DNA from: an uncultured Alphaproteobacteria bacterium
Lineage (GTDB): Bacteria; Pseudomonadota; Alphaproteobacteria; Rs-D84
Direction: 5' to 3'
Assembly (NCBI GenBank): GCA_937903135.1
Contig: CALDAH010000024.1
Span: forward strand, 18,471-82,470
DNA: 64,000 nt
Shown: one piece after another, positions 12,460 through 64,000 of the stretch
Layout of the letters: the number at the start of each line of letters is the position of its first letter
Position numbering within the stretch: the first letter of the stretch is position 1
Notes under the pieces: generated by a model
Told to the model about the DNA's origin: nothing
The model's database searches: none
The model's input: the letters and a program-made list of their open reading frames with translations, nothing else
Made by a program: the position numbers and the translations under genes

Positions 12460-12536
12460 TTGTGTTTTCCCTTGATATTGCGAACGTTTTATTATACACT
12501 ATAACACGAGCAACAGAAACTCAAGGGAGTATTTTC

Positions 12537-12956
12537 ATGAAAATTAAAAACATTGCTATGTTGGCGGGCGTTGCGGGTATTTTGGCCGCATGTGGTGGGT
12601 CAACAAAGATCGTAGAACCGGCGGATTTAAATGATCAGCGCGTATTTTTCGCGTTTAATTCATCTGAAATTTCTGATGAAGCGCGCGATAACCTGTTAGG
12701 TCAGGCGCTGTATATGAAAAATCACGCAGATACAAAAATCCAAATCGCAGGTAATTGCGACGAACGTGGTTCAACAGAATACAACTTGGCATTGGGTGCA
12801 CGTCGTGCCAACGCAGCCAAGACTGTTATTGTAAAAGACGGTGTAGAAGCGAATCGTATTTCAACAATTTCATACGGCAAAGAACGTCCATTGGTAAAAG
12901 GAACGGGCGAAGCTGTATGGCAGTGGAATCGTAACGCAACAACAACTGTTAAATAA
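12537..12956 (+). CDS. pal: Peptidoglycan-associated lipoprotein Pal.
   Basis: Lipobox ILAAC and an OmpA-like domain (NCDERGSTEYNLALGARRA). An SD (aagggag) lies upstream. Confidence 0.85.
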   Translation: MKIKNIAMLAGVAGILAACGGSTKIVEPADLNDQRVFFAFNSSEISDEARDNLLGQALYMKNHADTKIQIAGNCDERGSTEYNLALGARRANAAKTVIVKDGVEANRISTISYGKERPLVKGTGEAVWQWNRNATTTVK

Positions 12957-24556: not shown

Positions 24557-26812
24557 ATGGCAGAAAAGTTCAAGATTTTATCAGCTGGCAAGGGTAAGGG
24601 TTTGAATATATTCAAATCCAGTGCGTATAAGGAACACGAACGTACGCCCCTGGCGCGTGAGTTTTGGGAACTGCGCTGGGCAATTGGTATATGGCTGGCA
24701 TGTGCGCTGGCGTTCGGTTTATCGTTTATTGCCGAGCATATATGGCGTTATGGCTGGTCGCCGGCATCGGTAAAATGGACGTCGTTATATCTGCATAATA
24801 TGCTAACAACTGGCGGCCTGTCGGTTATTGCCGAGATACCGTCATGGCTATGGCGATGCATTGCTAATACCGATTTGGCGTGTATGACGCCGTTGTTCCC
24901 GATAATTGCGTATTATTTCATGTCGGATAAAACGCTGGTATCGGAATTTAACCCGAATTCCAAGGATAAGTTTGATGAAAAAACATCAAACAAGGCCACA
25001 GCCGATGATATTAAAAAAATGGCCGCAGATCATAAAAACAAAGAAGGGCTGTTTAACGGTTTTATGATGGTTCTGGGGTATTTTAAGAACAAGGGTAAAA
25101 ACGCCCCGTTAAAGATGGATGAATGCTTATCGGCACTATTACTTGCCCCGGCGGGAACGGGTAAAACGGTTGGTGTCGTTATTCCGACGATATTGGAATG
25201 CGATAATGTTTCAATGATTATTAACGACCCTAAGCCTGAATTGAACGAAAAAACATCAGGGTATCGTGCATCAATCGGGCCGACGTTTATTATTAACTGG
25301 GGCGCACGTGATGAACCGGAACGTGGGATATACTATCCGTCATGGAATCCGCTGTCCCCGGAAAATATGCCATCCGACGCCGAGGCAAAAAGTACATACA
25401 TTCAGGTTATCGTAAATACATTAATAGAAGAAGCCCGCGGGAGTGCCGATCCCCATTGGTCGCAAAGTGGGCGTGCGGGTCTGACCGGATTTATTAATTT
25501 TATTGTATCAAAGGTTGAACGGGCCAAGGCAAACGATTATTTCTATTCGCGTATATCCAGCGGCGAATTTGACGCAGATGATGCGGCGATTCTGGCTGAC
25601 TATTATTTAACAATGACAAGCGACCCGAATGCGATCGCCGCGTTGGCATTGCTGCAAAGGGGCGAACTAAACGCGATGAATTATGTCCATGTCGGCACAT
25701 GGGACGGTGTTCCGGCCGAATGGCGCGGCCGCGAAGCGTCGTTCCCGATGTTTTTAGCATGGTACGCCGAGGGGCTGCTGCGCGTCGGCCGGGAAATTGA
25801 AAACCGCAAGCGTCAGGGCGATCAAATGGTTATGATGGCCGACCCGATGAAAGATTTTCTGTTATCGGCGGTGAACGAGGCGCAGCTATACTCATACGAA
25901 CAAGATGCCGTAACCGCGCTATTAAACCTGGCCAATACACCGGATAAGGAACGTGGATCGGTTATATCTACGATTAATACGGGGCTGAATATTTTCCGAC
26001 ACCCGGCCGTAAATAAACACACACAGCATTCGGATTTTCATTTTTCAGATATCCGCGGTATGCGTGACCCGCGCGATGGAAAAATTAAACCGGTTACGAT
26101 CTATCTGTCAATTAACGTCGCGGATTCTACGGCATTCAGTCAGATTACAAGTATGTTTATTGAACTGCTGTCAAAATACCTGATTGCGCACAAACCCGAC
26201 AGCGAGGCAAACGGAATAAAACAAGGCCCGTACCCCGCGCTGTTCGTATTGGACGAAATGCCGACGATGAATAAGCTTGAGGCGATTATCCAAGGGCCGG
26301 CGGTCGGCCGCGGCCAGAAAGTATCATACCTGATCGTCGGGCAGGACATAAGCCAGATTGCCGAAAAATACGGGGACAAAGCGGCCGATACAATTATCGC
26401 CAATACCGCGGCAAAGGTTATCTTGCGCGTAAATGAACCGATGACCGCGCGACGCTTTTCGGAAATGATGGGCGAAAAAATGAAAAAGAAAACGGTCAAA
26501 GGCCCGGATGGCAAAGATACCGAACAGACCGATAGTAGCCCGTTATTTACACCAATGGATTTAATGACACTGGATAAAAGCAAGCAGCTGGTTTTATTCC
26601 AAGGATTTTATAATCGCCCGATTGAAGCGTCCCAGGAACGCTGGTATCTGAATAAAAGCGATATAGAAAAACAGCTCTATCAGAAGGTATCCATGGGCGA
26701 AGCGTCCCCTGTACCGGAATTTATAATAAAATCCCATCATGCGGCACTGGGATACAGCGGCGATGCGCGTTTATACGACCCGGTCGCAAAAGAGGTTAAG
26801 GTATTAGCATAA
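24557..26812 (+). CDS. virD4: Type IV secretion coupling protein (VirD4/TraG family).
   Basis: Two N-terminal TM helices. Walker A (LLLAPAGTGKTVGVVIPTIL) closely resembles VirD4. A Walker B/DE region is also present (LFVLDEMPTMNKL). Length is 751 aa. Confidence 0.65.
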   Translation: MAEKFKILSAGKGKGLNIFKSSAYKEHERTPLAREFWELRWAIGIWLACALAFGLSFIAEHIWRYGWSPASVKWTSLYLHNMLTTGGLSVIAEIPSWLWRCIANTDLACMTPLFPIIAYYFMSDKTLVSEFNPNSKDKFDEKTSNKATADDIKKMAADHKNKEGLFNGFMMVLGYFKNKGKNAPLKMDECLSALLLAPAGTGKTVGVVIPTILECDNVSMIINDPKPELNEKTSGYRASIGPTFIINWGARDEPERGIYYPSWNPLSPENMPSDAEAKSTYIQVIVNTLIEEARGSADPHWSQSGRAGLTGFINFIVSKVERAKANDYFYSRISSGEFDADDAAILADYYLTMTSDPNAIAALALLQRGELNAMNYVHVGTWDGVPAEWRGREASFPMFLAWYAEGLLRVGREIENRKRQGDQMVMMADPMKDFLLSAVNEAQLYSYEQDAVTALLNLANTPDKERGSVISTINTGLNIFRHPAVNKHTQHSDFHFSDIRGMRDPRDGKIKPVTIYLSINVADSTAFSQITSMFIELLSKYLIAHKPDSEANGIKQGPYPALFVLDEMPTMNKLEAIIQGPAVGRGQKVSYLIVGQDISQIAEKYGDKAADTIIANTAAKVILRVNEPMTARRFSEMMGEKMKKKTVKGPDGKDTEQTDSSPLFTPMDLMTLDKSKQLVLFQGFYNRPIEASQERWYLNKSDIEKQLYQKVSMGEASPVPEFIIKSHHAALGYSGDARLYDPVAKEVKVLA

Positions 26813-30481: not shown

Positions 30482-30552
30482 TATAAATATATTTTTTGTG
30501 TTTTTATATAAAATACGATAAAATAATTCATGGATTAGATAAGGAGAAAGTA

Positions 30553-31200
30553 ATGAAAAAAATTGCATTATTTATGGCATTTGCCGGACTGCTGTCCGCG
30601 TGTACAACGGTAAATCCATATACAGGCCAGACCCAGACGTCCAAGGCCGTATGGGGATCTGCGATCGGCGCGGCAACCGGGGCAGCGACCGGCGCATTGG
30701 TCGCGAAAAAAAGCGGCACGGGCGCGATCGTTGGTGGTCTGGCCGGGGCAGCACTTGGCGGGGGCGTTGGATATTATCTGGACGCGCAAGAGGCAGAACT
30801 GCGTCAGGAATTGGAATCAACCGGGGTAAGCGTTGTTCGCGCCGACGACAGCATTCGTTTGGTTATGCCGGGAAATATTACATTTAAAACAGATTCATCG
30901 GATATAAACGCATCATTTTATGCGACATTAAATTCCGTTGCAAAGGTATTAAAGAAATACAGCAATTCAACCGTAATGGTATCCGGATTTACCGACAGCA
31001 CGGGCAGTGCGGAATATAACCAGGCACTGTCAAAGCAGCGTGCGACGGCCGTTGCCGCATACCTGGAAGGTCAGGGCGTCGCAGCACGTCGCTTTGAAAT
31101 TATCGGCATGGGCTCGTCCAATCCGATTGCGTCAAACGATACGGCCGCCGGGCGTGCCCAGAACCGCCGCGTAGAGATTAAAATTATTCCGAATAAGTAA
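30553..31200 (+). CDS. OmpA-family lipoprotein with a glycine-zipper segment.
   Basis: Lipobox LLSAC, a Gly-zipper (GSAIGAATGAATGALVA…GGLAGAALGGGVGY), and a C-terminal OmpA-like domain (TDSTGSAEYNQALS..RA…RRVEI). Confidence 0.7.
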   Translation: MKKIALFMAFAGLLSACTTVNPYTGQTQTSKAVWGSAIGAATGAATGALVAKKSGTGAIVGGLAGAALGGGVGYYLDAQEAELRQELESTGVSVVRADDSIRLVMPGNITFKTDSSDINASFYATLNSVAKVLKKYSNSTVMVSGFTDSTGSAEYNQALSKQRATAVAAYLEGQGVAARRFEIIGMGSSNPIASNDTAAGRAQNRRVEIKIIPNK

Positions 31201-45673: not shown

Positions 45674-46336
45674 TTAAAAACCTTGTGGTTTTTCCATTTT
45701 TACGCTGGTAACCTTTTTATCCAATGCTGATACTACGTCGTTTGTAATATCCAGGTTTTGGGCGTCTGCACCTGTACGGGCAAAGCGGCCGTCAATTACC
45801 AATGATAATTTTTTCTTTGCGATAATACCTTCTATGATCGGGTCAAGGTGTTTTGTCTGCATTTCATTTAATGCCTTTTGAAATGACATTTCAATGCTCT
45901 GGGCACGTTCGGCCAGGTCACGCTGCAGTTTTGTTACGCGGTTTTGATAATCAACAACGCGGCGCTGCAGTGCTTCGCGTGATAAAACGTCCTGAGATTT
46001 TTCAATCTCTGCTTTTTCTTTTTCCAATGCTTTCTGGTCACGGGTTAGTTCATCGCGCAGTTTGTTTTCATATGATTCTTTTTGTTTACGCAGATCCTGT
46101 AATGCTTTTGCATCGGATTGAATCGCGTCCATGCGAATAACCGCAATACGCAGGTTTGCACCATTCGCGGCATCGGTTGATACCTCTTCTATGGCGTCGG
46201 TTACGGTTGCCCCGCCACGGTTAAACGATGATACCGCCCATACGCCGATGGCCGCAATCGCGATAACTGCCGCCGCAATAATACCCATGCGGGCATAGCT
46301 TTTTGCTGCCGGATTAACATTTTTTGTATTTGCCAT
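45674..46336 (-). CDS. OmpH/Skp-family periplasmic chaperone with an N-terminal membrane anchor.
   Basis: Coiled-coil-rich and basic protein. It lies immediately upstream of lpxD-fabZ, as skp does in the bamA-skp-lpxD-fabZ cluster. Confidence 0.6.
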   Translation of the reverse strand: MANTKNVNPAAKSYARMGIIAAAVIAIAAIGVWAVSSFNRGGATVTDAIEEVSTDAANGANLRIAVIRMDAIQSDAKALQDLRKQKESYENKLRDELTRDQKALEKEKAEIEKSQDVLSREALQRRVVDYQNRVTKLQRDLAERAQSIEMSFQKALNEMQTKHLDPIIEGIIAKKKLSLVIDGRFARTGADAQNLDITNDVVSALDKKVTSVKMEKPQGF

Positions 46337-46407: not shown

Positions 46408-47100
46408 TTATCGGACCGGGGCGATGCGAATCTCTACGCGGCGATTGGTTAATCGGCCGATATCATCCTGGGCGGCAATTGGGCGTGCCGCCCCGCGCCC
46501 GACAATAAACAATCGTTCGGGGATAATCCCGTGCTGGGCAAAATATACCCCAACCCGTTGTGCCATATCAAATGACAATGCACGTGCCGCATTATTGTCG
46601 CGCGTTGCATCGGTATAGCCTGCGATTTCAATAAACGTTGCATCGTATTTTTTCAAAATTTTTGTAATTATGGACAATGTATCCGACCCAGTGGCCGATA
46701 TATCCGCCACGTTTAATTCCATAATTGCATCGCGAACAAGTATTACCACAACCTCGGTCCCGGCGCGCTGAACAGATATGCCGGGTTTGCGCAGCGCATC
46801 ATATAGGGCGTATTCCAGAGACGACATATAGCCGAGCAACGCCATGTTGTCATTCGTGGTTTTATCACCGTATTCCGCCCGTGCCCCGGCGTTATTATTA
46901 ATATCGCTGTTCGCGACGGTGCGTCCCCCCGCGCCAAGCAGTACCTGGCGCTTGGCAATACGGGATGTTTCGGTCATATCCGTTACGCTTGCGCCGCGCA
47001 GGATTTGACCCCACGTCGCCCGATCGGGGCTGTGATATTGCATGCATCCGGCGATGCAGAGAACGGATATAAATAAAAAAGATATTTTAAATTTATTCAT
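46408..47100 (-). CDS. OmpA/MotB-family peptidoglycan-binding lipoprotein.
   Basis: Lipobox LCIAGC and a C-terminal OmpA-like domain (AGYTD…N..L…RA..V…RRVEI). Its ATG directly abuts the stop codon of the upstream pilin-like gene. Confidence 0.7.
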   Translation of the reverse strand: MNKFKISFLFISVLCIAGCMQYHSPDRATWGQILRGASVTDMTETSRIAKRQVLLGAGGRTVANSDINNNAGARAEYGDKTTNDNMALLGYMSSLEYALYDALRKPGISVQRAGTEVVVILVRDAIMELNVADISATGSDTLSIITKILKKYDATFIEIAGYTDATRDNNAARALSFDMAQRVGVYFAQHGIIPERLFIVGRGAARPIAAQDDIGRLTNRRVEIRIAPVR

Positions 47101-47559
47101 TTATTCCGCGATGAATGAAATTTGATTTGTTTGTGATGAAAAACAATGCGACCCCGGATCGGTTTCATATCCGTTAACTAATACCGCGCTGGCCCATTTT
47201 GGAATCGCCGTGGTAAAATAATCACATTCACCTTCGCTGAGGTTAGTTAGGTTAATAGAAAACGTTTTACCATCCGCGCCGGCCGATACGGACCAATTAT
47301 TATCGCCAATCGGTGCATTGGCGTTTTTAAGTGCCCCGGCCTTAATCAAATAATCCACAGAGAGGCCCGAGTACGTACCGCGCACCTGCATTAGCAGTCG
47401 TACGTTTTTCGCAATGCTGTCTATTTCCGATGTTGCAATCGCACGTATCTGGTTTTGACGTATTGCGCGATATATTCCGATCGTACTTACGGTCATAACA
47501 CCGGCAATTGCCATAACGCCAATAATTTCAATCAAAGAACGTCCTGATTCTGCCTTCAT
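47101..47559 (-). CDS. Prepilin-type N-terminal domain protein (type IV pilin or pseudopilin-like).
   Basis: The N-terminus MKAES-G-RSLIE-IIGVMAIAGVMTVSTIGIY fits the class III signal, with Gly at -1, Glu at +5 and about 20 hydrophobic residues. A strong SD (gcaagaggaaacataATG) lies upstream. Length is 152 aa. Confidence 0.55.
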   Translation of the reverse strand: MKAESGRSLIEIIGVMAIAGVMTVSTIGIYRAIRQNQIRAIATSEIDSIAKNVRLLMQVRGTYSGLSVDYLIKAGALKNANAPIGDNNWSVSAGADGKTFSINLTNLSEGECDYFTTAIPKWASAVLVNGYETDPGSHCFSSQTNQISFIAE

Positions 47560-47575
47560 TATGTTTCCTCTTGCT

Positions 47576-49147
47576 TTATTTTGTTACGCTAATAATCTCG
47601 GCGTTTTCAAACAGGCTCATTGCGCTGGCGATCATCGGGTCGGCTGCGAGCTCTTGTTGTTTTTGTTCGGTAACCGTTTGCGCATGCGCGGATTCGGCCG
47701 TCCGGGTTAATTGCCACGTATGACCCGTTTTATCCGACAGCCATACGGTTAGTTTATGTGCGAAATCCGGTTCGCCCTTGCGGTCAAAGTATGTTATTGC
47801 GCCGTCGCTGAATTCTGTGATTTCAATATTGGCGGTATAGTATGAATATAGCATAATCTCTTTTGATTCATGCAATGCCGTGGCCAGATCCGCCGCGGAT
47901 ATTATTTTGCGAAACGCAGGTTTTGCAGCTTCAAGGGCCGCCCCCGGTGTGGCCGATGTGCCGGGCGTCGGTTTTTTTATCCCCCCCGCCGGCGGCGTTT
48001 GCTGTGATTGTTGTTTTAAAATATCTGATACAGACGGCATATCCGCGATATGCATCATCCGAACAATCAGCATGTCAAAGCATTGTTTTTGATTCCCAGA
48101 TGCCTGCATTTCAGGGACGGCGGCAACCATAACCTGCCAGATGCGCGATAGTGTATTTAGTGATACGTTTGCGTTAATCGTGCGAATCTGGGCGCGTTGA
48201 TCGGCCGAATACGGGGAATTAATCGCATCGCCCGCGCGCAGTGCCGGGTGCATACGTGTCGCCCAGTGTGTCCATTCCATCATATCGGTTAACAGCATCG
48301 CTAAATCCGCGCCGTTATTATAAATCTGGTCGGCACGTTCCAATGCATCGGCGGTATTGCCCGATAGCAGCGTTTTCATAAAATCAACGACAACACCACG
48401 GTCGGCGCGTTTTAGCATGTCGAGTACCGCTGCCTCGTCTACGTTACCGCCGGTCTGGGCGATTGCCTGATCCAATAGCGACAGGCCATCACGGACCGAC
48501 CCATCGGCCGCACGCGCCAGCAGTTCGTTTGCAGAATCTGATAACGTAATTTTTTCCTGATCTGCGATCCAGGCAAAGTGTTTCTTTAGTGTTTCAACGG
48601 GGACGCGCGCTAAATCAAACCGTTGACAGCGGGATAAAATCGTAACAGGGACTTTTCGGATTTCCGTCGTCGCTAAAATAAATATAACGTGTGCAGGCGG
48701 TTCTTCTAGTGTTTTTAGCAGCGCGTTAAACGCACTGGTTGATAGCATATGGACTTCGTCAATAATATAAACTTTATATCGGCCGTTCGTTGGGCGGTAT
48801 TGTGCAGCATCCAAAATATCGCGCATGTTATCAACGCCCGTATGCGATGCGGCGTCAATTTCCATAACGTCAATATGTTGCCCCGCGGCAATCGCGCGAC
48901 AGTTTTCACATTGCCCGCATGGCGTCGCAGTCGCCCGATCCGCCGACAGGCAATTTAATGCCTTGGCCAGGATTCGTGCGGTACTGGTTTTTCCCGTTCC
49001 GCGAATACCGGTAAATATATATGCGTGTGCAATGCGTGATGTATTAATCGCGGTCGTTAATGTTTTTACCAAAACATCCTGCCCGATAAGGGTTTGAAAA
49101 TCCTGACTGCGATACTTTCGCGCTAAAACGGTATAATTGCTATCCAT
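47576..49147 (-). CDS. dnaX: DNA polymerase III subunit gamma/tau DnaX.
   Basis: AAA+ Walker A GIRGTGKTS and a zinc-module CxxC…CxxC. Confidence 0.9.
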   Translation of the reverse strand: MDSNYTVLARKYRSQDFQTLIGQDVLVKTLTTAINTSRIAHAYIFTGIRGTGKTSTARILAKALNCLSADRATATPCGQCENCRAIAAGQHIDVMEIDAASHTGVDNMRDILDAAQYRPTNGRYKVYIIDEVHMLSTSAFNALLKTLEEPPAHVIFILATTEIRKVPVTILSRCQRFDLARVPVETLKKHFAWIADQEKITLSDSANELLARAADGSVRDGLSLLDQAIAQTGGNVDEAAVLDMLKRADRGVVVDFMKTLLSGNTADALERADQIYNNGADLAMLLTDMMEWTHWATRMHPALRAGDAINSPYSADQRAQIRTINANVSLNTLSRIWQVMVAAVPEMQASGNQKQCFDMLIVRMMHIADMPSVSDILKQQSQQTPPAGGIKKPTPGTSATPGAALEAAKPAFRKIISAADLATALHESKEIMLYSYYTANIEITEFSDGAITYFDRKGEPDFAHKLTVWLSDKTGHTWQLTRTAESAHAQTVTEQKQQELAADPMIASAMSLFENAEIISVTK

Positions 49148-49660: not shown

Positions 49661-51022
49661 ATGATTTTGCAATCGCAACGTGGTAATTTTTTACTTCAGG
49701 CATTATTAGCACTTGCGTGCATATTTGCATTCATTCCGTTTTTTGCAAACACTATTGCCGCGCGCGACACTAACGAACGAATGTTCGCCGCAACCGGTCA
49801 AATTGAACAGGCCCAGGCCGCCGCGCGAATTTTCATACGTGAAAACGCAAACGCGCTGCCATATGATAAAACGGTTATCGCCGGTAATCAATTCGCCGAT
49901 ACGCTTGAAGCGTACGGACTGCCGCTGGGGTTTGTACCGCGAACGGCACTGGGACAGGATATTGCATTGGTTATAAATAAAACCGCGACAGATATAACGG
50001 CGCATCTGGAAGTTACGGGCGGTGATCTATCGGCGATTGCCCGGGCAGAGCTAATACGCCGTATCGGTTTTTACGCCACGCCGTTCGGGGATGCAATACG
50101 CGTCGGAATTGCGCTGGAAAATATTTATTCAGATGTTGTTCGCCGAAATGAACCCGATACGGATAATAACGGTTTTTTAACTAATCTGGATATGGGGGGA
50201 AATACATTTAATAACGCCGGCACGGCGATTGCACGCCAAGGGGATTTCGCCACGGGGGAATTTAAAACACTTTCCATCATCGGGTTTGAAAACGGGCGCA
50301 GGGTTCGCAATTCAATTGCTGCGATTTCCGCGAATAAGGCGGTGTTTCAAACCAAATCAGGCGAGGCGGCATTATCCATTACCCGCGGGGTTTTATCGGC
50401 GGATGAAATAAATGCAAAAACAATTGCTAAGTTCGGGGACACGGGGAATTTTACATCAAATTCCGCATCGGTTTATGATTTTGCAATGACGGCGGGGCGG
50501 ACGGGTTTTTCCGGCCCGGATAAATGGAACGTTCGCGGAAACCTTGTATCGGATCGGGTTACGTTTAGTGTTGAACGACTGGACGTGGATTCATTTGTAA
50601 ACGCGTCCCGCGGCCAGGATGTTTATATTACCCCGGATGATTTGGAATATAATTCGCGCAGTGGAATTGACGCCGGGGTTTTAATCGCATCAAATATAAC
50701 GCTGCGCGATCAAACGTCCGCTGCATTGGCGAACGGCGAAAGCGGTGCTGTGGTGGTTGATATTCGCCCGGCCGGGACGTCTGTGCTGCCGGATGTTTTG
50801 CTGGAAACAATTGATAATAACGCGTTTAGTATAATTGCCCGGCCGGGGGCGAACGATGATAAGATGCAGAATTGTCGTACGATAATATCTGATCTGAATG
50901 CATCATATAACCAGCGTTCGCTGGCGCAATATATTATTTGCCAGTATGTATATTGGCAGCGACTGGAAAAAAGAATTGATATAAAGGAATGTTTGTTATC
51001 AGGCAGGGGGGGCTGTGTATAA
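49661..51022 (+). CDS. Large pseudopilin-like protein 1 (prepilin-type N-terminus, Gln at +5).
   Basis: The N-terminus is …QR-G-NFLLQ-ALLALACIFAFIPFF. An SD (aggaggg) abuts the ATG, and a TTG at 49667 is an alternative start. The gene overlaps the next gene by 8 nt. Confidence 0.45.
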   Translation: MILQSQRGNFLLQALLALACIFAFIPFFANTIAARDTNERMFAATGQIEQAQAAARIFIRENANALPYDKTVIAGNQFADTLEAYGLPLGFVPRTALGQDIALVINKTATDITAHLEVTGGDLSAIARAELIRRIGFYATPFGDAIRVGIALENIYSDVVRRNEPDTDNNGFLTNLDMGGNTFNNAGTAIARQGDFATGEFKTLSIIGFENGRRVRNSIAAISANKAVFQTKSGEAALSITRGVLSADEINAKTIAKFGDTGNFTSNSASVYDFAMTAGRTGFSGPDKWNVRGNLVSDRVTFSVERLDVDSFVNASRGQDVYITPDDLEYNSRSGIDAGVLIASNITLRDQTSAALANGESGAVVVDIRPAGTSVLPDVLLETIDNNAFSIIARPGANDDKMQNCRTIISDLNASYNQRSLAQYIICQYVYWQRLEKRIDIKECLLSGRGGCV

Positions 51023-52217
51023 ACGGAATGGGATTTTTTCGGATCTATCGCGTGGCGCCAGTGTAACAGAGGTTTTACTGGCCATGGCAATTGTTACCAT
51101 GGCGGCCCCGTTTGTTTATAACCAGATCGCCCAGACCAACCGGGATATTCGCGATATATCCATGGCACGTGATATAATCGCACTGCGTGATCCGGCGTTG
51201 AATTTTATTCGCATAAACCAAGACTCGTGGCCCGATGCCGCGCAGATACAATTATCAGACGATGAATTGGATCAGATATCAGATACAGCATTTGCGGGAT
51301 TTATTGATAAATATTCTGTTAAGGGCGCAGGTATTACGGATGTTTATTTGGCGTTTAATACACATGATTCACAGTTGCATGCGAACCGCATCGCGCGTCA
51401 GATTGGTGATAGCGCGGCCGTGGTTGACGCATCCGGCGTTGCATATGGCAATACATGGGCGATATCCGCACCGGATTTAAAGCCCGGGGATTTAATATAT
51501 CGCATATCACGTGATTTTTCCGGGAACGATAAAACCAAATACCTGCATCGTGCAACGTCCGGGGATGATAATTTAAATGTTATGCAGCGTGATTTACATA
51601 TGGGCGGGTTTAATGCGTATAATATCGGGACTGCGTCGGCGGAATCTGCGCGGATTAATTCGGCCGTTGCGATGTTTGTCACATCGGACGATGTGTCGGC
51701 CGAAAATATATATTTTTCATCGGGCGCAAATATGGACGGTGGAAACGCTGCAATTGGAACTATGCGCGTATCGGGTGATATAACGGGATTTCGGAATATA
51801 TACGCGGATAATCTAAACGGCGGGGGATATACCACGGCCGGGCGTATTATTGCCGATCGCGCACGGGTAAATAATTCTGTAAACGTTGCCGGGGATTTTG
51901 TTTTAAAATCAGATTCTGCGCGAACGATCAGTGCGTTTACCGGGATTCGGGCAAATTCTGTTTATACAACATCAATAACCGCATCCGAGATGGTGTTCTA
52001 CGGTAACGTCGGGCTGACGGTATCGGGCGAGCTGTTAATGTCAACAACCCCTGCGTTAAAGATCGGCGGTTGGTCATTCCCATCGCTGACGCCGCCACGG
52101 TTTGATGAACTGTCGCTGTCGCGCGCGGCAATCCCGGCAACGCCGGTCGCGGATGAATTTGCGCCGCTAATGTCGTCCGGATGGCAGGATATTCCCCCAA
52201 TAACAGAGGTACAATGA
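51015..52217 (+). CDS. Large pseudopilin-like protein 2 (GTG start).
   Basis: The N-terminus is …SR-G-ASVTE-VLLAMAIVTMAAPFVY. A GGGGGG SD lies upstream. The gene overlaps the next gene by 4 nt (ATGA). Confidence 0.45.
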   Translation: MYKRNGIFSDLSRGASVTEVLLAMAIVTMAAPFVYNQIAQTNRDIRDISMARDIIALRDPALNFIRINQDSWPDAAQIQLSDDELDQISDTAFAGFIDKYSVKGAGITDVYLAFNTHDSQLHANRIARQIGDSAAVVDASGVAYGNTWAISAPDLKPGDLIYRISRDFSGNDKTKYLHRATSGDDNLNVMQRDLHMGGFNAYNIGTASAESARINSAVAMFVTSDDVSAENIYFSSGANMDGGNAAIGTMRVSGDITGFRNIYADNLNGGGYTTAGRIIADRARVNNSVNVAGDFVLKSDSARTISAFTGIRANSVYTTSITASEMVFYGNVGLTVSGELLMSTTPALKIGGWSFPSLTPPRFDELSLSRAAIPATPVADEFAPLMSSGWQDIPPITEVQ

Positions 52218-53527
52218 AAACGCAAAATCGGATCTTTAACAACGAAGCGCGCGGCAGCATGCTGGTTGAATTACTGCTAAGTGTTGCGCTGGCGGTATTG
52301 ATTATTCCGTTTATATTTCGCTATCAGCATGATGCGGCCCGGCGCGCTGAAAATATTGCAATCGTTAATCAGATGGAAACAGTTCAGGCCGCATTAGAAC
52401 GATATATTATTGATAACCGCGTGGAATTATTAAAAACCGTTGGCAAAAATATTACGCGCGTTGAAATCACAGATTTAATTAACTATGGCGTTCCGGAAAG
52501 TATTGTTGATAAATTCGGGGCCGACTATCAGCTGCGTGTATTAAAAACAAATGATATAAATAATCAGTCCACGCTTCAGGGGGTCGTTGTTTTATCATCG
52601 CGCGATATCACACCGGTTCGTACGCGTGAAATTGTTGGAATCGGCGGCACTTCTATGGGGTTTGTTGATGGTAATCATGCGTATGGATCATTCGGGGCAT
52701 GGCATACGGATTTAATTGATCTCGGGATCGCGGGCGACGGCGGTGTTATTCAGACCACGCCCGTTCAGCGTGATAATGCGCTTTATCTATGGCGCGTCCC
52801 GTCGGATAACGACAGCGATGCGACAATGATGACGTCATTAAACCTTGGTGGGCATGATATTACAGGGGCGAAGTATTTTGATATCGCCACCGCCCGATTT
52901 GACGAGGTTATTAATTCATCAATTATTGCGGCCGGGGATATTATTTTTCAAAACCGCACGACCATAGATAAAACATTTATTGCAAACTCTGCGGCGGTTG
53001 CCGGTACATTATCTGCGGATTCGCGTAATATGGAAATCACAGGTGCATTAAAGCTGGCGGATGTTGGAAAATTTTCAAACTTTACAACGAATGATTTATG
53101 GGTAACGAACTTAAATCTATCGGGGTTAACGGTATCCGGGGATGAATACGGTGCGGTTATGATAAACATAAATCGTTCGCTGGATATGAACGCCGGTCGT
53201 ATTGATGCGATGTTTGCAACGGTCGGTTTTACAGGATCTATTACGCCGCGATTGGTCGTCCGCGAAAGAATAGAAGATTCAACAAACCCTGAATATTTTT
53301 GGGATACAGAATATCGTGTTGCGAACTTTATGGATCTGACCTCGCGAGAGCTTAATCGCATGGCGACATTAATCGTGGCGCGGGAAAAGGGTGGCAATAC
53401 TGCCGCGGGCAAAGCATTCGCAGCGGTTGCCGCGAACAAGAACGCAACAGTCGCGGATTTTATGAACGTAATTACAGATATTCAGAATAAAGTCCGCGCA
53501 AAATATCGCCTGTTGAATTTAGAATAA
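52214..53527 (+). CDS. Large pseudopilin-like protein 3.
   Basis: The N-terminus is MKTQNRIFNNEA-R-G-SMLVE-LLLSVALAVLIIPFIF. An SD (agagg) lies upstream. The 'N/R-IF' segment before the RG is shared with protein 2. Confidence 0.5.
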   Translation: MKTQNRIFNNEARGSMLVELLLSVALAVLIIPFIFRYQHDAARRAENIAIVNQMETVQAALERYIIDNRVELLKTVGKNITRVEITDLINYGVPESIVDKFGADYQLRVLKTNDINNQSTLQGVVVLSSRDITPVRTREIVGIGGTSMGFVDGNHAYGSFGAWHTDLIDLGIAGDGGVIQTTPVQRDNALYLWRVPSDNDSDATMMTSLNLGGHDITGAKYFDIATARFDEVINSSIIAAGDIIFQNRTTIDKTFIANSAAVAGTLSADSRNMEITGALKLADVGKFSNFTTNDLWVTNLNLSGLTVSGDEYGAVMININRSLDMNAGRIDAMFATVGFTGSITPRLVVRERIEDSTNPEYFWDTEYRVANFMDLTSRELNRMATLIVAREKGGNTAAGKAFAAVAANKNATVADFMNVITDIQNKVRAKYRLLNLE

Positions 53528-53547: not shown

Positions 53548-54054
53548 ATGAAAGTAACGTGTGAATTTTGTAAAACAGAATATTCCCTGCCGCGCGCGCC
53601 GGCATCTGCGGTAAAGTGTGCAATATGTGGTCGCGTATGGTCGGTTGCAAATGCCCCGCGGCGCAGTGCGACATTGATGTTTATCGCGGCCGTATGCGCA
53701 TTACTCGCGGCGGTTGTGTTTACGGTTACCATAATCGGACGTCATAAAATAAACGATGTTCAAAATCGTCCGCTGGTCGCGTCTATATCCGATATAAAAA
53801 CTGTTGTGGATGCAGATGGCGTTCCCCATTTTGTCGTAAGTGGAAACGTTATAAACCGTTCTGATGAAATATACGGCGTGCCGGATTTAATTATTGTATC
53901 GCGTGATGCCGACGGGAATCCGATTACGCGTCAGAAGTTTATGCCATCGGCAACGCTGCTGGATGCCGGGGCGCATGCATCGTTTTCGCATACACTGTCG
54001 TCACCGGCGGCCGGGGTTAAAAAAATTACAGTTGAACTGGGGGGCGATGAATGA
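53548..54054 (+). CDS. MJ0042-type zinc-ribbon membrane protein (DUF3426-like architecture).
   Basis: The N-terminal motif is CEFC…x15…CAIC, followed by a TM (LMFIAAVCALLAAVVFTVTII) and a periplasmic domain of about 100 aa. Confidence 0.5.
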   Translation: MKVTCEFCKTEYSLPRAPASAVKCAICGRVWSVANAPRRSATLMFIAAVCALLAAVVFTVTIIGRHKINDVQNRPLVASISDIKTVVDADGVPHFVVSGNVINRSDEIYGVPDLIIVSRDADGNPITRQKFMPSATLLDAGAHASFSHTLSSPAAGVKKITVELGGDE

Positions 54055-54515
54055 AGTGGTTATTGACACTGTTCATAATAATGCTAAGCGCTGTGGCAAA
54101 CGCCGCGGATGAAAAACCGGTTGTACGCCGGGTTAGTATTTTTTCAACCAGCACCGACTGGGAAGCGATAACGGGTCTATCGCTGTCCGAGTTTCGTGGA
54201 AAGTTTATATCAGATTCTAAACTGGTCGGGAACAAGGGGCTGGTATTGTATTATTTAGATGGATTCCCCTGCTATGGCCTTGGCGAAGGGGTTCGCGTAT
54301 GGATTGACCCGCGTGGGCGTGCGGATAATGACCTGCGGATTGTATGTTTGCGCCCGCCGCAGCAGATAAATTTTGCATGGCGAAATATGACGCGCGACGC
54401 GGATCAGGGTGTAACAACGGGGATTTTAACATGCCCTGTATCGGCATCGGGTCGTGATTTAACGATTGAGTTATCAAAGTGTAAAAAAGGCCCGGATTGG
54501 CCAGATTATGAATAG
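54051..54515 (+). CDS. Small secreted hypothetical protein.
   Basis: Signal peptide MKWLLTLFIIMLSAVANA, with 4 Cys. It overlaps the end of the previous gene by 4 nt. Confidence 0.4.
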   Translation: MKWLLTLFIIMLSAVANAADEKPVVRRVSIFSTSTDWEAITGLSLSEFRGKFISDSKLVGNKGLVLYYLDGFPCYGLGEGVRVWIDPRGRADNDLRIVCLRPPQQINFAWRNMTRDADQGVTTGILTCPVSASGRDLTIELSKCKKGPDWPDYE

Positions 54516-55556: not shown

Positions 55557-58500
55557 ATGTTTGTCCTGAAAAAAACTATCAGTTTTATCGCTGTTTTCAG
55601 CGTATTACCGGCGGCATTCGCGGTTACGGCACGCCCGAGTATTGTAATGAAGGCGTCACCACGTATGCCGACAATGACGGCAAATATAAACAATAATAAT
55701 ACAACCACGTCCGGGACAACGGTTAATTCATCAACCCTATTGGCGAACGCCGAATGCATAGAGGCGTATACTTCATGTATGAAATCAGCGGATGCATGTG
55801 GCCCGAATTTTGAAGAATGCACAAACAAGGTATTATTCCACGGAAAAATGCCCCAGTGTTTAAGTACACTTGCCCAGTGTTCAGCGGCCGGTGTAACCAG
55901 CCTTTACGGGACAAGTAATACTGCCGCATTATCCACGGTCGCATCAACCAACAGCTATGGCGAGGTTACAAACTACACATACCCGACCGACGGCAGTGTT
56001 TTAGGGCAGTTAATCACCGGTGCGGCGATAACTAACCGTTATGATACGTCAACCTGCGTTCGTCGTTATACATCGTGTTTAAAGAAAGACACCGTATGCG
56101 GTAATGATTTTGAATTATGCACAACAAACGCAGAATTTAAAAAACAACGCGTATTTTGCGATTCAACCCTTGCACGCTGCCAGGGCGAAGGGATAACAGA
56201 ATTATTCGGATCAGCCTCTCTAACGGCGGCCCCGAGTGCGAGCAGTCGCGTCGGTGAAATGATCGCCGAAGGTGCGGCACTGGCGGCCGTTAATGCCGTT
56301 TCAACGTGTTATAAGGTAATTGATAACTGCATCCTGGGGGCATGTGCGGCGAACCCGTATAAGTGTTATGAAAACACCCCGGTTGTAAATGCCGAATTGG
56401 CCGATGCAATAAACAGCGGCGATGATAAAAATCCGGATATAAACAATACCGATACGACCACGGCGTCGTCGGTCGCGGCATATATCCGCAATTCGTGCAA
56501 GGATACAATCGGCGCAAATAAATACTGCTATGCGACATTTATCGGTAACGGTAATATGCCAACCGCATCCCAGCTGCGCGACGAAGATAACCAAGACGAA
56601 ATTTATTCCGAAGCCTACAGCGCACGTATGGGCGACGGGATGAAGGCACAGATAACAGAGCTGGTAAATAAATTTGATACCAAGGCTAAAAATAAATGTA
56701 TTGATACAATTAAATCCTGTGCGATGCGCGTTTGCGGCAGTGGCAGTGGCGCGGCATGCTATTCCCAGGTATTCGGATCAACGTCTAAATCCATTAACGC
56801 CGGGAATAATTATAATGAAATTAAAACCGGATGCGCGGCGATTGTAAATACGGACGCGAATTGCAAATATGCAGCTAAAAATACAACTGGCGTTGGCACG
56901 TATTCATATGCATTTATTAACACAGATGCATTTGATACGCTGTTCCCGGAATACGACACCAACAGCACAGACAATGACCCGATCGGCGTAATTGCGTCGC
57001 TGAACGCGTCATTGGCAAACAGCTACAGCGATGCGGCGATTGCGCAGATGAAAAAGCAGTGTCAGTCGGTTGCCAGCAGCTGTGTTAAATCAATGTGCGG
57101 GGCAGATTATCAAAACTGCTATCGTAACCGTACGGATGTATATTCGTCATTAACAGATACAGGTGATACACGTTTTGATAAATCCATGAACAAGGTAGGC
57201 GGCGTACTTGACTACACTATCGTTCTGGGGCTGTGCGTTGATACAGTTAAAAACGCATCTGTATGCGAAGAACATTTGGCAATTGAACAACAAAAATTAA
57301 AAATGAACAATTCAAATGCCGCCACCAGCTGGGGTGATGCAAATAACGTCCGCGGCGGCTGGATTGATGCCGGCTCAACATCCAAGATGGAATTTGCAGC
57401 CGAGAGTGTTCAGGCCGTTGATGAAAACGGTAATAACCTCTGCACGGTCAAAGGTGGCACGGAACAGGGCGTATGCTATACCGTTGACGCCAACGGCAAG
57501 GTATATGATACCCCGGCGATGATTTCGTATTCTACGTATGTTGAATCCCAGGCGGCAAATACGTTGTTTAAAGATTTAATATACGACCTAGAGATCGAAG
57601 CCCAGGCAAAATATAACGCGAAACTAACCAAAGAACAGAATATGTGCATGGCCAATAATGATGGTGGCCTGATGGGGAATCGTGATGCCGGCAGCACATT
57701 TATGTGGGTAAAACTGCGTTCTGCGAAAGTCCCGGCGAACTATGCGACGGCCGGACTTACCCCGAAACAGTTCGTGGCCAGCAATGATTTATACGGTTCA
57801 TTCTGTCGCGTTCGTGTTACATTGCAATCCGACGATCGTCGTATCCAGGATGTAATTAACAAAGGCGCAGACTGGGCAACCGCGTATTTCGCAACAGGTG
57901 ACGTATTTACCTGCGGCAGCTGGATACCGGCCGAAGCATTAGAAGAAATTGCAAAAGACGTTGCAAAAGATGCAACCGAGGATCAGGCCGCGGCACAGAA
58001 ACGTACCCGGACATGGCTGACCATATTAGGTGGACTGGGCGGTACAACGGGCGGCGCGTTCTTAGGTGAATCTATCCGCACCGGGAATACACTGGGTGGC
58101 CTAACGGGGCTAGGTGACGGGAATAAGGCGGATAAGAGCTCTAAAACCGATGCTAAAATGTGCCTTAATAACCTGGAATATGCCGCAGATGATCTAAATG
58201 ATGATAGTCTGTCAAATGCTGCGTACTCTATTGACACGGCCATAAGCTATGCTAAAAAGGCAAAGGTTTCGGATTCTGCGCTGACCGTTGCATCAAATGC
58301 CGCCAGCAATTTAAGAAAGGTTGTTGATGAATCCAGCGTTAGCGCCGAAAACAAAACAGTTGATAAAACCACTGCAATCAGAGAGGCCGAAACCGCGATT
58401 CGCAATCTGGAAACACTATGCGAACGCGTTGACGATGAAAAAAGCGATAAAGATAATAGTGGCAAGGGTTGGATTACAGGCGTTTCAACCGTCGCAATGG

Positions 58501-58682
58501 GTACGGCAGGTGCATTGTTGATTAACAAGGCCACCCGTGACATCCAGCAAACAAATCTGGATAAGGCACAAAGAGAGGCCTATGATGAATGGATGAATGC
58601 GATCGGGCGTCATATCAACTGCTATATCGGCGCAGAAGAAGCCGGACAGTATGGTGATATCGTATCAACGTCGCTGGAATAA
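55557..58682 (+). CDS. Giant cysteine-rich secreted or surface protein (1041 aa) with an internally duplicated Cys module.
   Basis: The signal peptide MFVLKKTISFIAVFSVLPAAFAVTA follows an SD (ggagtgag). An Asn/Thr-rich stretch comes next. Two modules of about 95 aa are clearly repeated (…CIEAYTSCMKSADACGPNFEECTNK…C…C and …CVRRYTSCLKKDTVCGNDFELCTTN…C…C). Further Cys-pair motifs follow. The C-terminal region has Gly-rich hydrophobic stretches (LTILGGLGGTTGGAFLG and GVSTVAMGTAGALLI). Confidence 0.55.
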   Translation: MFVLKKTISFIAVFSVLPAAFAVTARPSIVMKASPRMPTMTANINNNNTTTSGTTVNSSTLLANAECIEAYTSCMKSADACGPNFEECTNKVLFHGKMPQCLSTLAQCSAAGVTSLYGTSNTAALSTVASTNSYGEVTNYTYPTDGSVLGQLITGAAITNRYDTSTCVRRYTSCLKKDTVCGNDFELCTTNAEFKKQRVFCDSTLARCQGEGITELFGSASLTAAPSASSRVGEMIAEGAALAAVNAVSTCYKVIDNCILGACAANPYKCYENTPVVNAELADAINSGDDKNPDINNTDTTTASSVAAYIRNSCKDTIGANKYCYATFIGNGNMPTASQLRDEDNQDEIYSEAYSARMGDGMKAQITELVNKFDTKAKNKCIDTIKSCAMRVCGSGSGAACYSQVFGSTSKSINAGNNYNEIKTGCAAIVNTDANCKYAAKNTTGVGTYSYAFINTDAFDTLFPEYDTNSTDNDPIGVIASLNASLANSYSDAAIAQMKKQCQSVASSCVKSMCGADYQNCYRNRTDVYSSLTDTGDTRFDKSMNKVGGVLDYTIVLGLCVDTVKNASVCEEHLAIEQQKLKMNNSNAATSWGDANNVRGGWIDAGSTSKMEFAAESVQAVDENGNNLCTVKGGTEQGVCYTVDANGKVYDTPAMISYSTYVESQAANTLFKDLIYDLEIEAQAKYNAKLTKEQNMCMANNDGGLMGNRDAGSTFMWVKLRSAKVPANYATAGLTPKQFVASNDLYGSFCRVRVTLQSDDRRIQDVINKGADWATAYFATGDVFTCGSWIPAEALEEIAKDVAKDATEDQAAAQKRTRTWLTILGGLGGTTGGAFLGESIRTGNTLGGLTGLGDGNKADKSSKTDAKMCLNNLEYAADDLNDDSLSNAAYSIDTAISYAKKAKVSDSALTVASNAASNLRKVVDESSVSAENKTVDKTTAIREAETAIRNLETLCERVDDEKSDKDNSGKGWITGVSTVAMGTAGALLINKATRDIQQTNLDKAQREAYDEWMNAIGRHINCYIGAEEAGQYGDIVSTSLE

Positions 58683-59332: not shown

Positions 59333-59356
59333 AAAATCCCCGGGCGGGGATTTTTT
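59333..59356. terminator. Terminator (aaaatccccgggcggggatttttt) at the 3' end of the minus-strand secreted-protein gene.
   Basis: Perfect GC stem with flanking A- and T-runs. Confidence 0.6.
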
Positions 59357-60647
59357 ATGGACACATCTCCAATTGATTTAAAACATTTTGAACGTCGTTA
59401 TTAACCGATACCGTTATCTCGCGCTGCAGGCCATCGGTGTATGTATAATAAAACTTTTGGCGGGCAAATTCCGGCATCTGTTTATATACCTCGGCAAACG
59501 GGGCCAGCATTGCGCTGAACCATTGGCGTCCGCGGCACAGACATCCGTTTCGTACGTCCGCCGCAACTGCCGCCGTCGCGGTATTCGGGTATTTCGTATC
59601 AAAGTCTTTGTCCGTCATCATTAAACAGCGCGCCCCTAGGCCGTAAAAATTAGCATCATCGGCCAAGAATTTATATACCAGGCCATCGGATGCCCCCGCC
59701 TGGCGCAGGGAATATGCCATCCCGTCTGTACAGCATGCGTTTGCCGACCCCATTAGCATTTTATAGCGCTGCAGCAACGGCGCGGCCGCCGGATGTGATG
59801 CGCTAATCTCAGGGTTGCAGCGGGCGGCGTTGATAAATTCCGCCATATTTATATCACGGATTTTCGGGCTTCGCGGCGATACGGTTTCGCGAATTATTGG
59901 TTTTCTGCGCCATATCTCGCATTCGGTCTCGGCCTCAAACGGGCAGCCATCGGCGCGGCCGAATGTCTGCTCTACTATCACCGTCATATCCTGGGCGGTA
60001 TATTCCGGGCGCGGCGCAGGAACGGCGACAGCCTCTGGGGCGGGGGGCGTTTCTGTGACCGAAACGTTTTCGGCCCAGATATTCCCGGATGGCCGTTTAG
60101 GGCTCAGCAGCTCTTCTACGCGGGCACGCGTCGCCGCCGCATCCGCCATATTTTGGTTATATAGCTCGGTTATATTTATATCTTCGGTCATTACCGCCGG
60201 TGCGATCGGCCGAGTGTCTGCCTCGCGCAGGTAAATCTCGGGCAGTGGCTCTAAGAACCAGTCGCTAAAATCCTTGGACTTATAATTTACAATAGAATCG
60301 TCCCAGATCGGAACGCCATCGCGCCAGTCCACCGTTTTATCCGCCGCGCGTGCGGTATATTTACCCGTCGTGCCATCCCATAATGGCGCACGAGTATCCG
60401 CCGGGACCGGCTTTATAGATAATGTTTTTACCGAACGCATTGGAATCTGCGTTGCATATATATATTCCGTCGGACCGGCATATGACGGTACGGCCGCCAT
60501 CGGGGCGGGTAATACTGCCGGCTCTTGAATCTGGTCTATATATAAAGGTTCAATATAACATCCCGCGCCAGTGCATTCGGACGCCATGGCCGGAATTGCC
60601 CCACATAAACATATCAGGGACGAAAAAGTTACAATTTTCATTTTCAT
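59355..60647 (-). CDS. Secreted hypothetical protein.
   Basis: The ORF extends to 60875, but the signal-peptide-like MKMKIVTFSSLICLCGAIPAMASE begins at 60647. The protein is Pro/Ala-rich with 10 or more Cys, and no family was recognised. The start is uncertain. Confidence 0.4.
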   Translation of the reverse strand: MKMKIVTFSSLICLCGAIPAMASECTGAGCYIEPLYIDQIQEPAVLPAPMAAVPSYAGPTEYIYATQIPMRSVKTLSIKPVPADTRAPLWDGTTGKYTARAADKTVDWRDGVPIWDDSIVNYKSKDFSDWFLEPLPEIYLREADTRPIAPAVMTEDINITELYNQNMADAAATRARVEELLSPKRPSGNIWAENVSVTETPPAPEAVAVPAPRPEYTAQDMTVIVEQTFGRADGCPFEAETECEIWRRKPIIRETVSPRSPKIRDINMAEFINAARCNPEISASHPAAAPLLQRYKMLMGSANACCTDGMAYSLRQAGASDGLVYKFLADDANFYGLGARCLMMTDKDFDTKYPNTATAAVAADVRNGCLCRGRQWFSAMLAPFAEVYKQMPEFARQKFYYTYTDGLQREITVSVNNDVQNVLNQLEMCP

Positions 60648-60960
60648 AATACGAATCATATCATAAAAAGCAGTGCTTTGAAAATATAAAATTTGATCTG
60701 GCGGCATTATTAGTAAGGTTTTTTCGGTATATATCGGTATATATAAAACGAATCGTTGCCGATTCTGTCGTATTTTTACAATAAATTTATAAAAATGAAT
60801 CGGTTTTTTGCATAAAACCGAATCGTAAAAGGGGTAAAAAAACAAAAAAATCAAAAAAATAAAAAAATTTTTCAATAGGATAAAATGGCGGAAATCCGGC
60901 GTTTTTCCTATGTTTTTATGGCCGGGGATAAATTTTTTTAAAATTATTTTTCAAAAAGCG

Positions 60961-61353: not shown

Positions 61354-62855
<1,502 letters not shown>

Positions 62856-62938
62856 ATAGAGAATACCGTTTACACGAAAACGGTCAAATCCAAAGCGACT
62901 GTCTGAATATCTCTTTTTGAAATGTGCATAGTTTTGCT

Positions 62939-63015
62939 GGGTCAGTAGTTCAGTTGGTTAGAATGCCGCTCTGATACAGCGGAGGTCGAAGATTCGAGTT
63001 CTTCCTGACCCACCA
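62939..63015 (+). tRNA. tRNA-Ile (anticodon GAT) in the 16S-23S spacer.
   Basis: Cloverleaf with acceptor gggtcag/ctgaccc, anticodon loop CUGAUAC, T-loop TTCGAGT, and an encoded CCA. Confidence 0.9.
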
Positions 63016-63319
63016 TATTTGATGAGGTTGGAATCAAAAACATATGTGTGTTTTTGATTCCAGATATTCTGATGGATATCTTCGGGATCTGCTTTTATAG
63101 CAATATATTGTTAATCGGTTTTTATGTCGCAAGTTAAAATTTTATAGAAATATGACTTTTTAATTTGTTGAACATCGTAATCTCAAAAAATCTTTCTAAA
63201 TAGAGTAATCACGAAAGTGATAATTCAATTAGAGAAGCAAGAATCAACTTAAATGCTTAAAAAACTCATTAAGTTCTTTTACTGTGTTTGAAGACTTTCT
63301 CTTCAAGCATAAGATAAAA

Positions 63320-64000
<681 letters not shown>

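Follow-up and report, generated by a model that had tools for sequence, protein, structure and literature searches.

A type IVb-like prepilin with arginine at the +1 position, encoded beside dnaX in Candidatus Enterousia

Introduction

The major pilins of type IVb pili, such as TcpA of Vibrio cholerae (the toxin-coregulated pilus), CofA and LngA of enterotoxigenic Escherichia coli (ETEC), bundlin BfpA of enteropathogenic E. coli (EPEC) and PilS of Salmonella Typhi and R64, carry a class III signal with Gly at -1 and Glu at +5. They share a long α1 helix, a β-sheet head and a Cys pair in the C-terminal half. A residue other than Phe at +1 is normal in this group, and to our knowledge Met, Leu, Val, Ser or Trp takes this position in those that have been characterised. 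Here we analyse a 64,000-nt stretch of contig CALDAH010000024.1 from an uncultured alphaproteobacterium (the window), in which the open reading frame (ORF) at 47101..47559 on the minus strand encodes a small protein with the same signal, helix, head and cysteines. Judged from its sequence and modelled structure, this product is a genuine type IVb-like prepilin of the bundlin/PilS/TcpA-like superfamily. It differs from the described major pilins in having Arg instead of a hydrophobic residue at +1, and in its size, with a leader of 6 aa and a mature part of 146 aa compared with about 15-30 aa and 180-200 aa. Its gene lies between dnaX and an OmpA-like gene, outside any pilus operon, and its host is an uncultured alphaproteobacterium with a reduced genome.

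TcpB and CofB are large type IVb minor pilins that are located at the tip and act as initiators or adhesins. Type II secretion systems (T2SS) have the pseudopilins GspG and GspI/J/K, and place the subunit without Glu+5 (GspK) at the tip. The usual pili of Alphaproteobacteria are formed by Flp/Tad pilins, which have about 50-60 aa, the motif G↓xxxxEY (↓ marks the prepilin cleavage site, here and below) and no globular head. The small pilin is like the Flp/Tad pilins in its alphaproteobacterial host and in its predicted prepilin-type processing. In contrast to them, it has a full head domain and belongs to the Bundlin/PilS family.

The host of the small pilin is Candidatus Enterousia, order Rs-D84. 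Rs-D84 genomes are mostly smaller than 1 Mb and are without several glycolytic enzymes, the tricarboxylic acid cycle, respiratory chains and standard transporters. These bacteria have been proposed to depend on partner organisms, and their metabolic deficiencies have been likened to the gaps of the Patescibacteria, which depend obligately on partners (PMC12306168). The homologues that we collected came from metagenome-assembled genomes (MAGs) of gut and rumen, under the names Candidatus Enterousia, 'Alphaproteobacteria bacterium' and 'uncultured Rickettsiales'. When one genome per GTDB species was scanned, 226 stretches with a gene for a relative turned up, among them a circular chromosome with a length of 958,618 bp (OZ007020.1).

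N-terminus and predicted fold of the small pilin

The protein starts with MKAESGRSLIEIIGVMAIAGVMTV. Its six-codon leader, MKAESG (47542..47559, minus strand), ends in an invariant Gly at -1 and is followed by Arg at +1, Glu at +5 and then about 20 uncharged residues; residues 8-30 are without charge, E11 excepted. A prepilin peptidase is predicted to cut between 47542 and 47541 on the minus strand, where R7 aligns on the Phe or Met at +1 of mature pilins in the PDB. Cleavage at G6↓R7 would reduce the 152-aa precursor to 146 aa. A first-pass annotation of the window had already called the protein pilin-like, with a prepilin-type leader, Gly at -1, Glu at +5 and an unusual Arg at +1. All of these features are present in the sequence and are conserved. 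Among 80 species-level loci, from which the synteny counts below are also taken, the N-terminus was GRSLIE in 72 orthologues and a close variant in the other eight, and Arg occupied +1 in 76. In a six-frame scan of the 64-kb window, a prepilin-like motif of this type occurred at the N-terminus of just four ORFs, all of them within 47.1-52.3 kb. The motif is thus no mere chance feature.

The pilin-like assignment was borne out by family and predicted fold as well. Two outcomes that the first-pass annotation had named as refuting, a fold unlike that of pilins and an unconserved N-terminus, did not occur. The type IVb pilin family PilS (PF08805) of Pfam matched the small protein with 23.8 bits, above its cut-off of 22. 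An AlphaFold2 model built from a 32-homologue alignment had a pLDDT of 83 and a pTM of 0.71, and consisted of a helix (residues 6-60) and, after it, a sheet of four strands accompanied by two short helices. When this model was compared with the PDB using Foldseek, the top 15 matches were all type IVb pilins, namely TcpA, CofA, the ETEC type IVb pilus and S. Typhi PilS. The best match had an E-value of 2.6e-5 and a TM-score of about 0.7 (query-normalised), and no other fold in the PDB reached an E-value below 0.1. All significant fold matches thus fell into the type IVb group. The small pilin has a sequence identity of 11-17% to the solved structures.

The sequence alignments also fixed the register of the N-terminus. 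Profile and single-sequence searches of the PDB placed G-R-S-L-I-E of the query on G-F-T-L-I-E of geopilin, and residue 8 of the query on residue 2 of mature TcpA. Therefore, Arg7 corresponds to the canonical +1 position. G6, E11, C112 and C139 were invariant in the 32 aligned homologues, and the two cysteines probably form a disulfide bond.

A large family of pilins with Arg at +1

We searched 1.84 billion representative proteins with a profile of the Enterousia pilin and obtained 794 relatives. The sequence G↓R-S-[LM]-[IV]-E was found in 134 of the 136 top matches with a readable N-terminus. The leaders of these relatives varied from 6 to more than 100 residues, and the G-R-S-x-x-E motif remained fixed. 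A second profile, made from distant members, matched at least 6,224 clusters. The best 120 of these clusters all carried precomputed Pfam matches to Bundlin and PilS, and each of the 115 new matches among them had G↓R…E. Their leaders measured 7-22 aa (median 10 aa), and their mature parts had a median length of 196 aa. Every second-profile match that had an organism name came from an 'Alphaproteobacteria bacterium' MAG. The invariant Gly beside leaders of variable length argues for cleavage at this Gly. In 25 very divergent members, with a mean column identity of 26%, Gly-1, Arg+1, Glu+5, Gly+8, Val+9, Ala+11 and two cysteines were invariant. The related pilins of other alphaproteobacterial lineages carried Bundlin and PilS, and one carried TcpA as well. 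A literature search found no paper on pilins with Arg at +1. Taken together, these sequence comparisons identify the small pilin as a compact member of a very large, uncharacterised family of Arg+1 pilins in uncultured Alphaproteobacteria.

The distant GRS pilins were mostly orphans amid housekeeping genes, for example adjoining tolB. One related lineage has an array instead of a single gene. At L099:8407-11175 (ENA ERZ28653429 scaffold_6, 281 kb), five tandem GRS-type paralogues of 150-179 aa, all with …QQSG↓RSMIEM…, sit between uvrC and an rluD-like gene, with asmA next. Such tandem paralogues are expected of real pilins. The loci L091 and L092 have one pilin in the slot that matches this array. 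The adjacency of pilin and rluD recurs in several lineages, and an rluD-like gene also closes the cluster of large prepilin-like genes in the window.

One homologue, MKNESG↓RTLME…, was found in a phage setting. It is encoded at L095:10001-10456 (JGI 3300042617, a 194-kb contig of a 'Rickettsiales bacterium' MAG), flanked by a fragment of a T7-type terminase on one side and a head-tail connector gene on the other, in a region that also encodes a phage capsid, DnaB and lysozyme. A scan of IMG/VR gave no viral relatives of the pilin. With this one T7-like prophage homologue and no relatives in IMG/VR, we rejected a phage link as a general explanation.

Gene order and packing around the pilin gene

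Pfam confirmed the gene order given in the first-pass annotation, which is dnaX, pilin, OmpA-like, OmpH/Skp, LpxD and FabZ. The dnaX gene (47576..49147, minus strand; Pfam) is the first of the apparent transcription unit. A spacer of 16 nt (47560..47575, minus strand) separates it from the pilin gene and includes the Shine-Dalgarno sequence AGAGGA (47571-47566), 7 nt upstream of the pilin ATG. The pilin stop codon TAA (47101-47103) touches the ATG (47098-47100) of the gene for a 230-aa OmpA-family lipoprotein (46408..47100, minus strand) to give TAAATG. The strong ribosome-binding site and this abutment had both been pointed out before, and the sequence agrees. Next follows the gene of the Skp/OmpH chaperone (45674..46336, minus strand; Pfam OmpH E 4.5e-15). 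A terminator-like hairpin with a T-run is located after skp (45658-45637, minus strand), and a second one after fabZ. The pattern of the hairpin behind skp suggests a transcription unit of dnaX–pilin–OmpA-like–skp. The dnaX gene is without the usual ybaB-recR next to it. Here ybaB is located about 7 kb beyond the window start (L100:17204-17497), and in the genome that carries P0120 it comes after the OmpA-like gene, at a distance of a few kb.

The order dnaX–pilin–OmpA-like was conserved in all 80 species loci. The distance between the pilin stop and the OmpA-like start was 0 nt in 50 loci, -1 nt in 14 and within ±8 nt in all 80. The distance between the dnaX stop and the pilin start was -1 nt in 45 loci and within 25 nt in all 80. 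Since dnaX has no conceivable role in a pilus, it serves as an internal control for gene packing. It is packed just as tightly, in genomes smaller than 1 Mb, so the abutment reflects genome compaction rather than function, and we rejected it as a sign of functional coupling. Two more distant Rs-D84 relatives also retain dnaX–pilin–OmpA-like, one of them without the three large prepilin-like genes nearby. The pairing is therefore old within the order. Outside Rs-D84, the related pilins do not adjoin OmpA-like genes. Thus, the unusual pairing to which the first-pass annotation drew attention proved to be conserved throughout the loci examined and in distant Rs-D84 relatives, but the adjacency is not good evidence of joint function.

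The OmpA-like lipoprotein

The 230-aa protein encoded after the pilin has a lipobox (…LCIAGC) and a Pfam OmpA match of 45.7 bits (cut-off 27.2; E 8.8e-12). Among the NCBIfam models YiaD scored best (95 bits), but YiaD, YfiB and similar models all remained under their cut-offs. The combination of a lipobox and a C-terminal OmpA-like domain is shared with peptidoglycan-binding anchors of envelope machines, such as Pal, YiaD, YfiB, DotK/IcmN, TssL/TagL and MotB. In published structures of Pal, OmpA and MotB-type domains, a conserved Arg binds diaminopimelate. We aligned the protein with E. coli Pal and with the OmpA-like proteins encoded at 12453-12956 and 30496-31200 of the window. The Asp of GxTD was retained (GYTD). 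At the Arg of LSxxRAxxV, in contrast, the protein has Met (LSFDMAQRV), with DMAQR in place of ERRAN. This replacement was conserved in at least 90% of 80 OmpA-like orthologues, whereas both other OmpA-like proteins of the window retain the Arg. The protein therefore differs from Pal, OmpA and MotB at the diaminopimelate-binding residue, and anchoring to peptidoglycan, which the first-pass annotation had taken for granted, is doubtful. The three OmpA-family proteins of the window comprise one Pal-like protein, one glycine-zipper/OmpA protein and the one encoded after the pilin.

Three large prepilin-like neighbours

The first-pass annotation had described a large pseudopilin-like operon about 2 kb away on the opposite strand. 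We found three large ORFs there, beginning 2.1 kb from the pilin gene, and all four prepilin-like genes fall within 6.5 kb. Large protein 1 (49661..51022, plus strand, 453 aa) has the N-terminal sequence …QRG↓NFLLQ, with Gly at -1 and Gln at +5. Large protein 2 (51015..52217, plus strand, 400 aa) has …SRG↓ASVTE, and large protein 3 (52214..53527, plus strand, 437 aa) has …ARG↓SMLVE. The ORF of the third opens at 52181, but this mechanical start is overlong; 52181-52213 is excess and the gene was called from 52214. The Gly at -1 was retained in all three proteins across about 70 species, and Glu at +5 in most orthologues of proteins 2 and 3. G↓N…Q was present in 73 of 74 orthologues of protein 1 and G↓A…E in most of the 71 orthologues of protein 2, and E+5 was invariant in the alignment of protein 3. 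The three proteins are weak paralogues of one another (E about 1e-4 to 0.025). They matched no Pfam or NCBIfam family and had no detectable similarity to PDB sequences. Protein 2 gave a faint GspI match at its N-terminus (E 0.058).

The large genes are followed on the plus strand by genes for a Zn-ribbon/TM/DUF3426-like protein of 168 aa and a secreted protein of 154 aa (53548..54515), whose membership of the system is uncertain. The Zn_ribbon_4 and DUF3426 matches of the 168-aa protein were below the Pfam cut-off, and neither protein matched a PDB sequence. In the 80 loci, the block of large genes, Zn-ribbon gene, 154-aa gene and RluD-like gene was divergent and upstream wherever the contig reached. 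The median cross-species identity of the four prepilin-like proteins, the Zn-ribbon protein and the 154-aa protein was 53-61%, compared with 76-83% for the housekeeping neighbours and 69% for the OmpA-like protein. This common fast rate gives weak support to the idea that these genes form one exposed module.

Two further ORFs in this region, of 1041 aa (55557-58682, plus strand) and 506 aa (59355-60875, minus strand), encode cysteine-rich proteins with signal peptides and no Pfam or NCBIfam family. The 1041-aa protein has repeated C-x-C-type motifs, and in 53 of the 80 loci its gene shares synteny with the pilin cluster.

The filament model and two other pilus-like systems

The reading that we favour, though with some reserve, is that the small protein forms a type IV filament as its main subunit, in which the three large proteins would be minor or tip pilins. 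The proposal of the first-pass annotation that the small pilin is the major subunit of the same system as the large proteins is plausible in view of the clustering, the shared type of signal and the similar evolutionary rates, but neither a prepilin peptidase nor assembly genes turned up in the DNA searched, as described below. TcpB and CofB offer a comparison for the large proteins. They have a similar size (400-500 aa), a pilin-type N-terminus and a gene near that of the major pilin. In contrast to the single TcpB or CofB, there are three weak paralogues here, which lack detectable sequence similarity to the PDB and for which no confident fold emerged.

A T2SS-like pseudopilus that exports folded proteins instead of growing into a long fibre might have a similar composition, with the small protein in the role of GspG and the large three as a GspI/J/K-like tip. 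One small gene is accompanied by three further prepilin-like genes, one of which is without Glu+5 like GspK, and the short leader and the size of about 146 aa are GspG-like. Database labels of the homologues, such as 'type II secretion system protein', 'GspH family' and 'PulG', point the same way. However, GspG and other pseudopilins were absent from the significant Foldseek matches, no NCBIfam Gsp model matched the small protein, and its family membership is Bundlin/PilS. The small pilin also has a probable disulfide pair. The large proteins, with 400-450 aa, are much bigger than GspI/J/K and unrelated to them beyond the N-terminus, and neither a secretin nor gsp genes occur nearby. No T2SS cargo is known for Rs-D84; the statement of the published survey on missing secreted hydrolases concerns UBA9783 only. 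We therefore consider a secretion pseudopilus improbable.

A DNA-uptake (competence) pilus, which would scavenge DNA as a nucleotide source in a biosynthetically poor organism, seems less probable still. It might fit the Patescibacteria-like deficiencies of Rs-D84 (PMC12306168), and the set of four pilins resembles a minimal competence pseudopilus. On the other hand, comEC, comEA and dprA are not near the Enterousia locus, both fold and family are those of type IVb pilins and not of Com or type IVa pilins, and there is no sequence hint of DNA binding.

Assembly machinery and points against a filament

Several results weigh against the filament model. Pfam was run on essentially every sizeable ORF of the window and detected no GspE/PilB-type ATPase, platform protein, A24 peptidase or secretin in these 64 kb. 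The genes called in a further 10 kb past the window start included no assembly genes either. There was no polytopic membrane protein among the unassigned ORFs of the window, and neither a GspE/TadA-type Walker A motif nor the A24 GxGDxK motif occurred in 1.75 Mb of related loci. The published genome survey reports type IV pilus genes for the UBA9783 lineage only, and not for Rs-D84 (PMC12306168). The N_methyl family (PF07963) scored 12.0 bits on the small pilin, under its cut-off of 21.2. The low N_methyl score can be attributed to the unusual residue at +1. For the large proteins, the AlphaFold2 model of protein 3 (27-sequence alignment) had a pLDDT of 42, with just the N-terminal helix of residues 14-67 and some strands at moderate confidence. 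An hhalign comparison between the large proteins and the small pilin covered 22 N-terminal residues and was not significant (E 0.12), and we therefore claim no homology between them. The pilin nature of the large proteins, which is read from their N-terminal motifs alone, is plausible.

These negative results would be explained if Enterousia and its relatives have no type IV assembly machinery at all. The GRS pilins would then be a fold reused as a membrane-anchored envelope protein. In such a case the machinery would have been lost, and the small protein, cleaved or not, would be an unpolymerised bitopic inner-membrane protein, whose periplasmic head, together with the co-translated, degenerate OmpA-like lipoprotein, would serve as an envelope tether or organiser, a new connector from inner to outer membrane of minimal Gram-negative cells. 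Besides the missing assembly genes (in about 74 kb of contiguous DNA and the 1.75 Mb of related loci) and the report of the survey, this possibility is favoured by the position of the pilin gene amid the envelope genes skp, lpxD and fabZ, and by the distant relative that retains dnaX–pilin–OmpA-like without the three large genes nearby. However, the strict Gly-1/Glu+5 combination behind variable leaders, in four proteins throughout an order-level clade and in more than 6,000 clusters, bears the mark of peptidase processing and of subunits that assemble helix on helix, not of a plain membrane anchor. Tandem pilin arrays in related lineages and the fast, surface-protein-like evolution of the pilin genes also speak against it. 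Moreover, the contiguous DNA searched amounts to about 8% of one genome of about 0.9 Mb, and a search of this extent does not show that the machinery is absent. We regard a pilin fold without a pilus, the main alternative to the filament, as unlikely, if slightly less so than the secretion pseudopilus.

The filament model, for its part, places the machinery at another site. An invariant Gly beside variable leaders, in the four proteins of this locus and in relatives by the thousand, would be difficult to account for if there were no peptidase, and we infer from this that the assembly machinery is encoded elsewhere in the genome.

Other features of the window

Some features of the window lie away from the pilin cluster. 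A VirD4/TraG-type coupling protein of 751 aa (24557-26812, plus strand; T4SS-DNA_transf E 5e-56) is encoded alone amid housekeeping genes. The 351-aa ORF at 1166-2221 has its true start at 2185 (339 aa), after the Shine-Dalgarno sequence GGAGAGG, and 2186-2221 is excess. An rRNA operon (61354-64000, plus strand) contains the 16S gene at 61354-62855, tRNA-Ile at 62939-63015 and the start of the 23S gene, from 63315; tRNA-Ala was not detected in its spacer.

Discussion

In the filament model, an A24-type prepilin peptidase encoded elsewhere would cut the small pilin at G6↓R7, and the hydrophobic helix of the cleaved pilin would pack into the filament core. The guanidinium group of Arg+1 and the α-amine might together neutralise Glu+5 of the neighbouring subunit. 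The three large prepilin-like proteins may act as minor or tip pilins or as adhesins, and the one with Gln at +5 might sit at the very tip, like GspK, which lacks E5, in type II secretion. An accessory role at the outer membrane is conceivable for the OmpA-like lipoprotein and is the weakest step of this explanation. The site of the pilin gene inside dnaX–pilin–OmpA-like–skp is best explained by gene packing in a genome smaller than 1 Mb. Given the supposed partner dependence of the host, the filament would most likely serve attachment or uptake.

The Arg+1 pilins comprise thousands of Bundlin/PilS-type proteins with Arg where the studied pilins have a hydrophobic residue, encoded as orphans amid housekeeping genes. 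They raise the questions of which peptidase processes them and how the filament core makes room for a charged N-terminus. If true, the use of a pilin fold in the absence of a pilus would be the greater novelty. Rs-D84 are common gut bacteria, and the four conserved pilin-type genes described here are a concrete candidate for an apparatus by which they may contact their partners.

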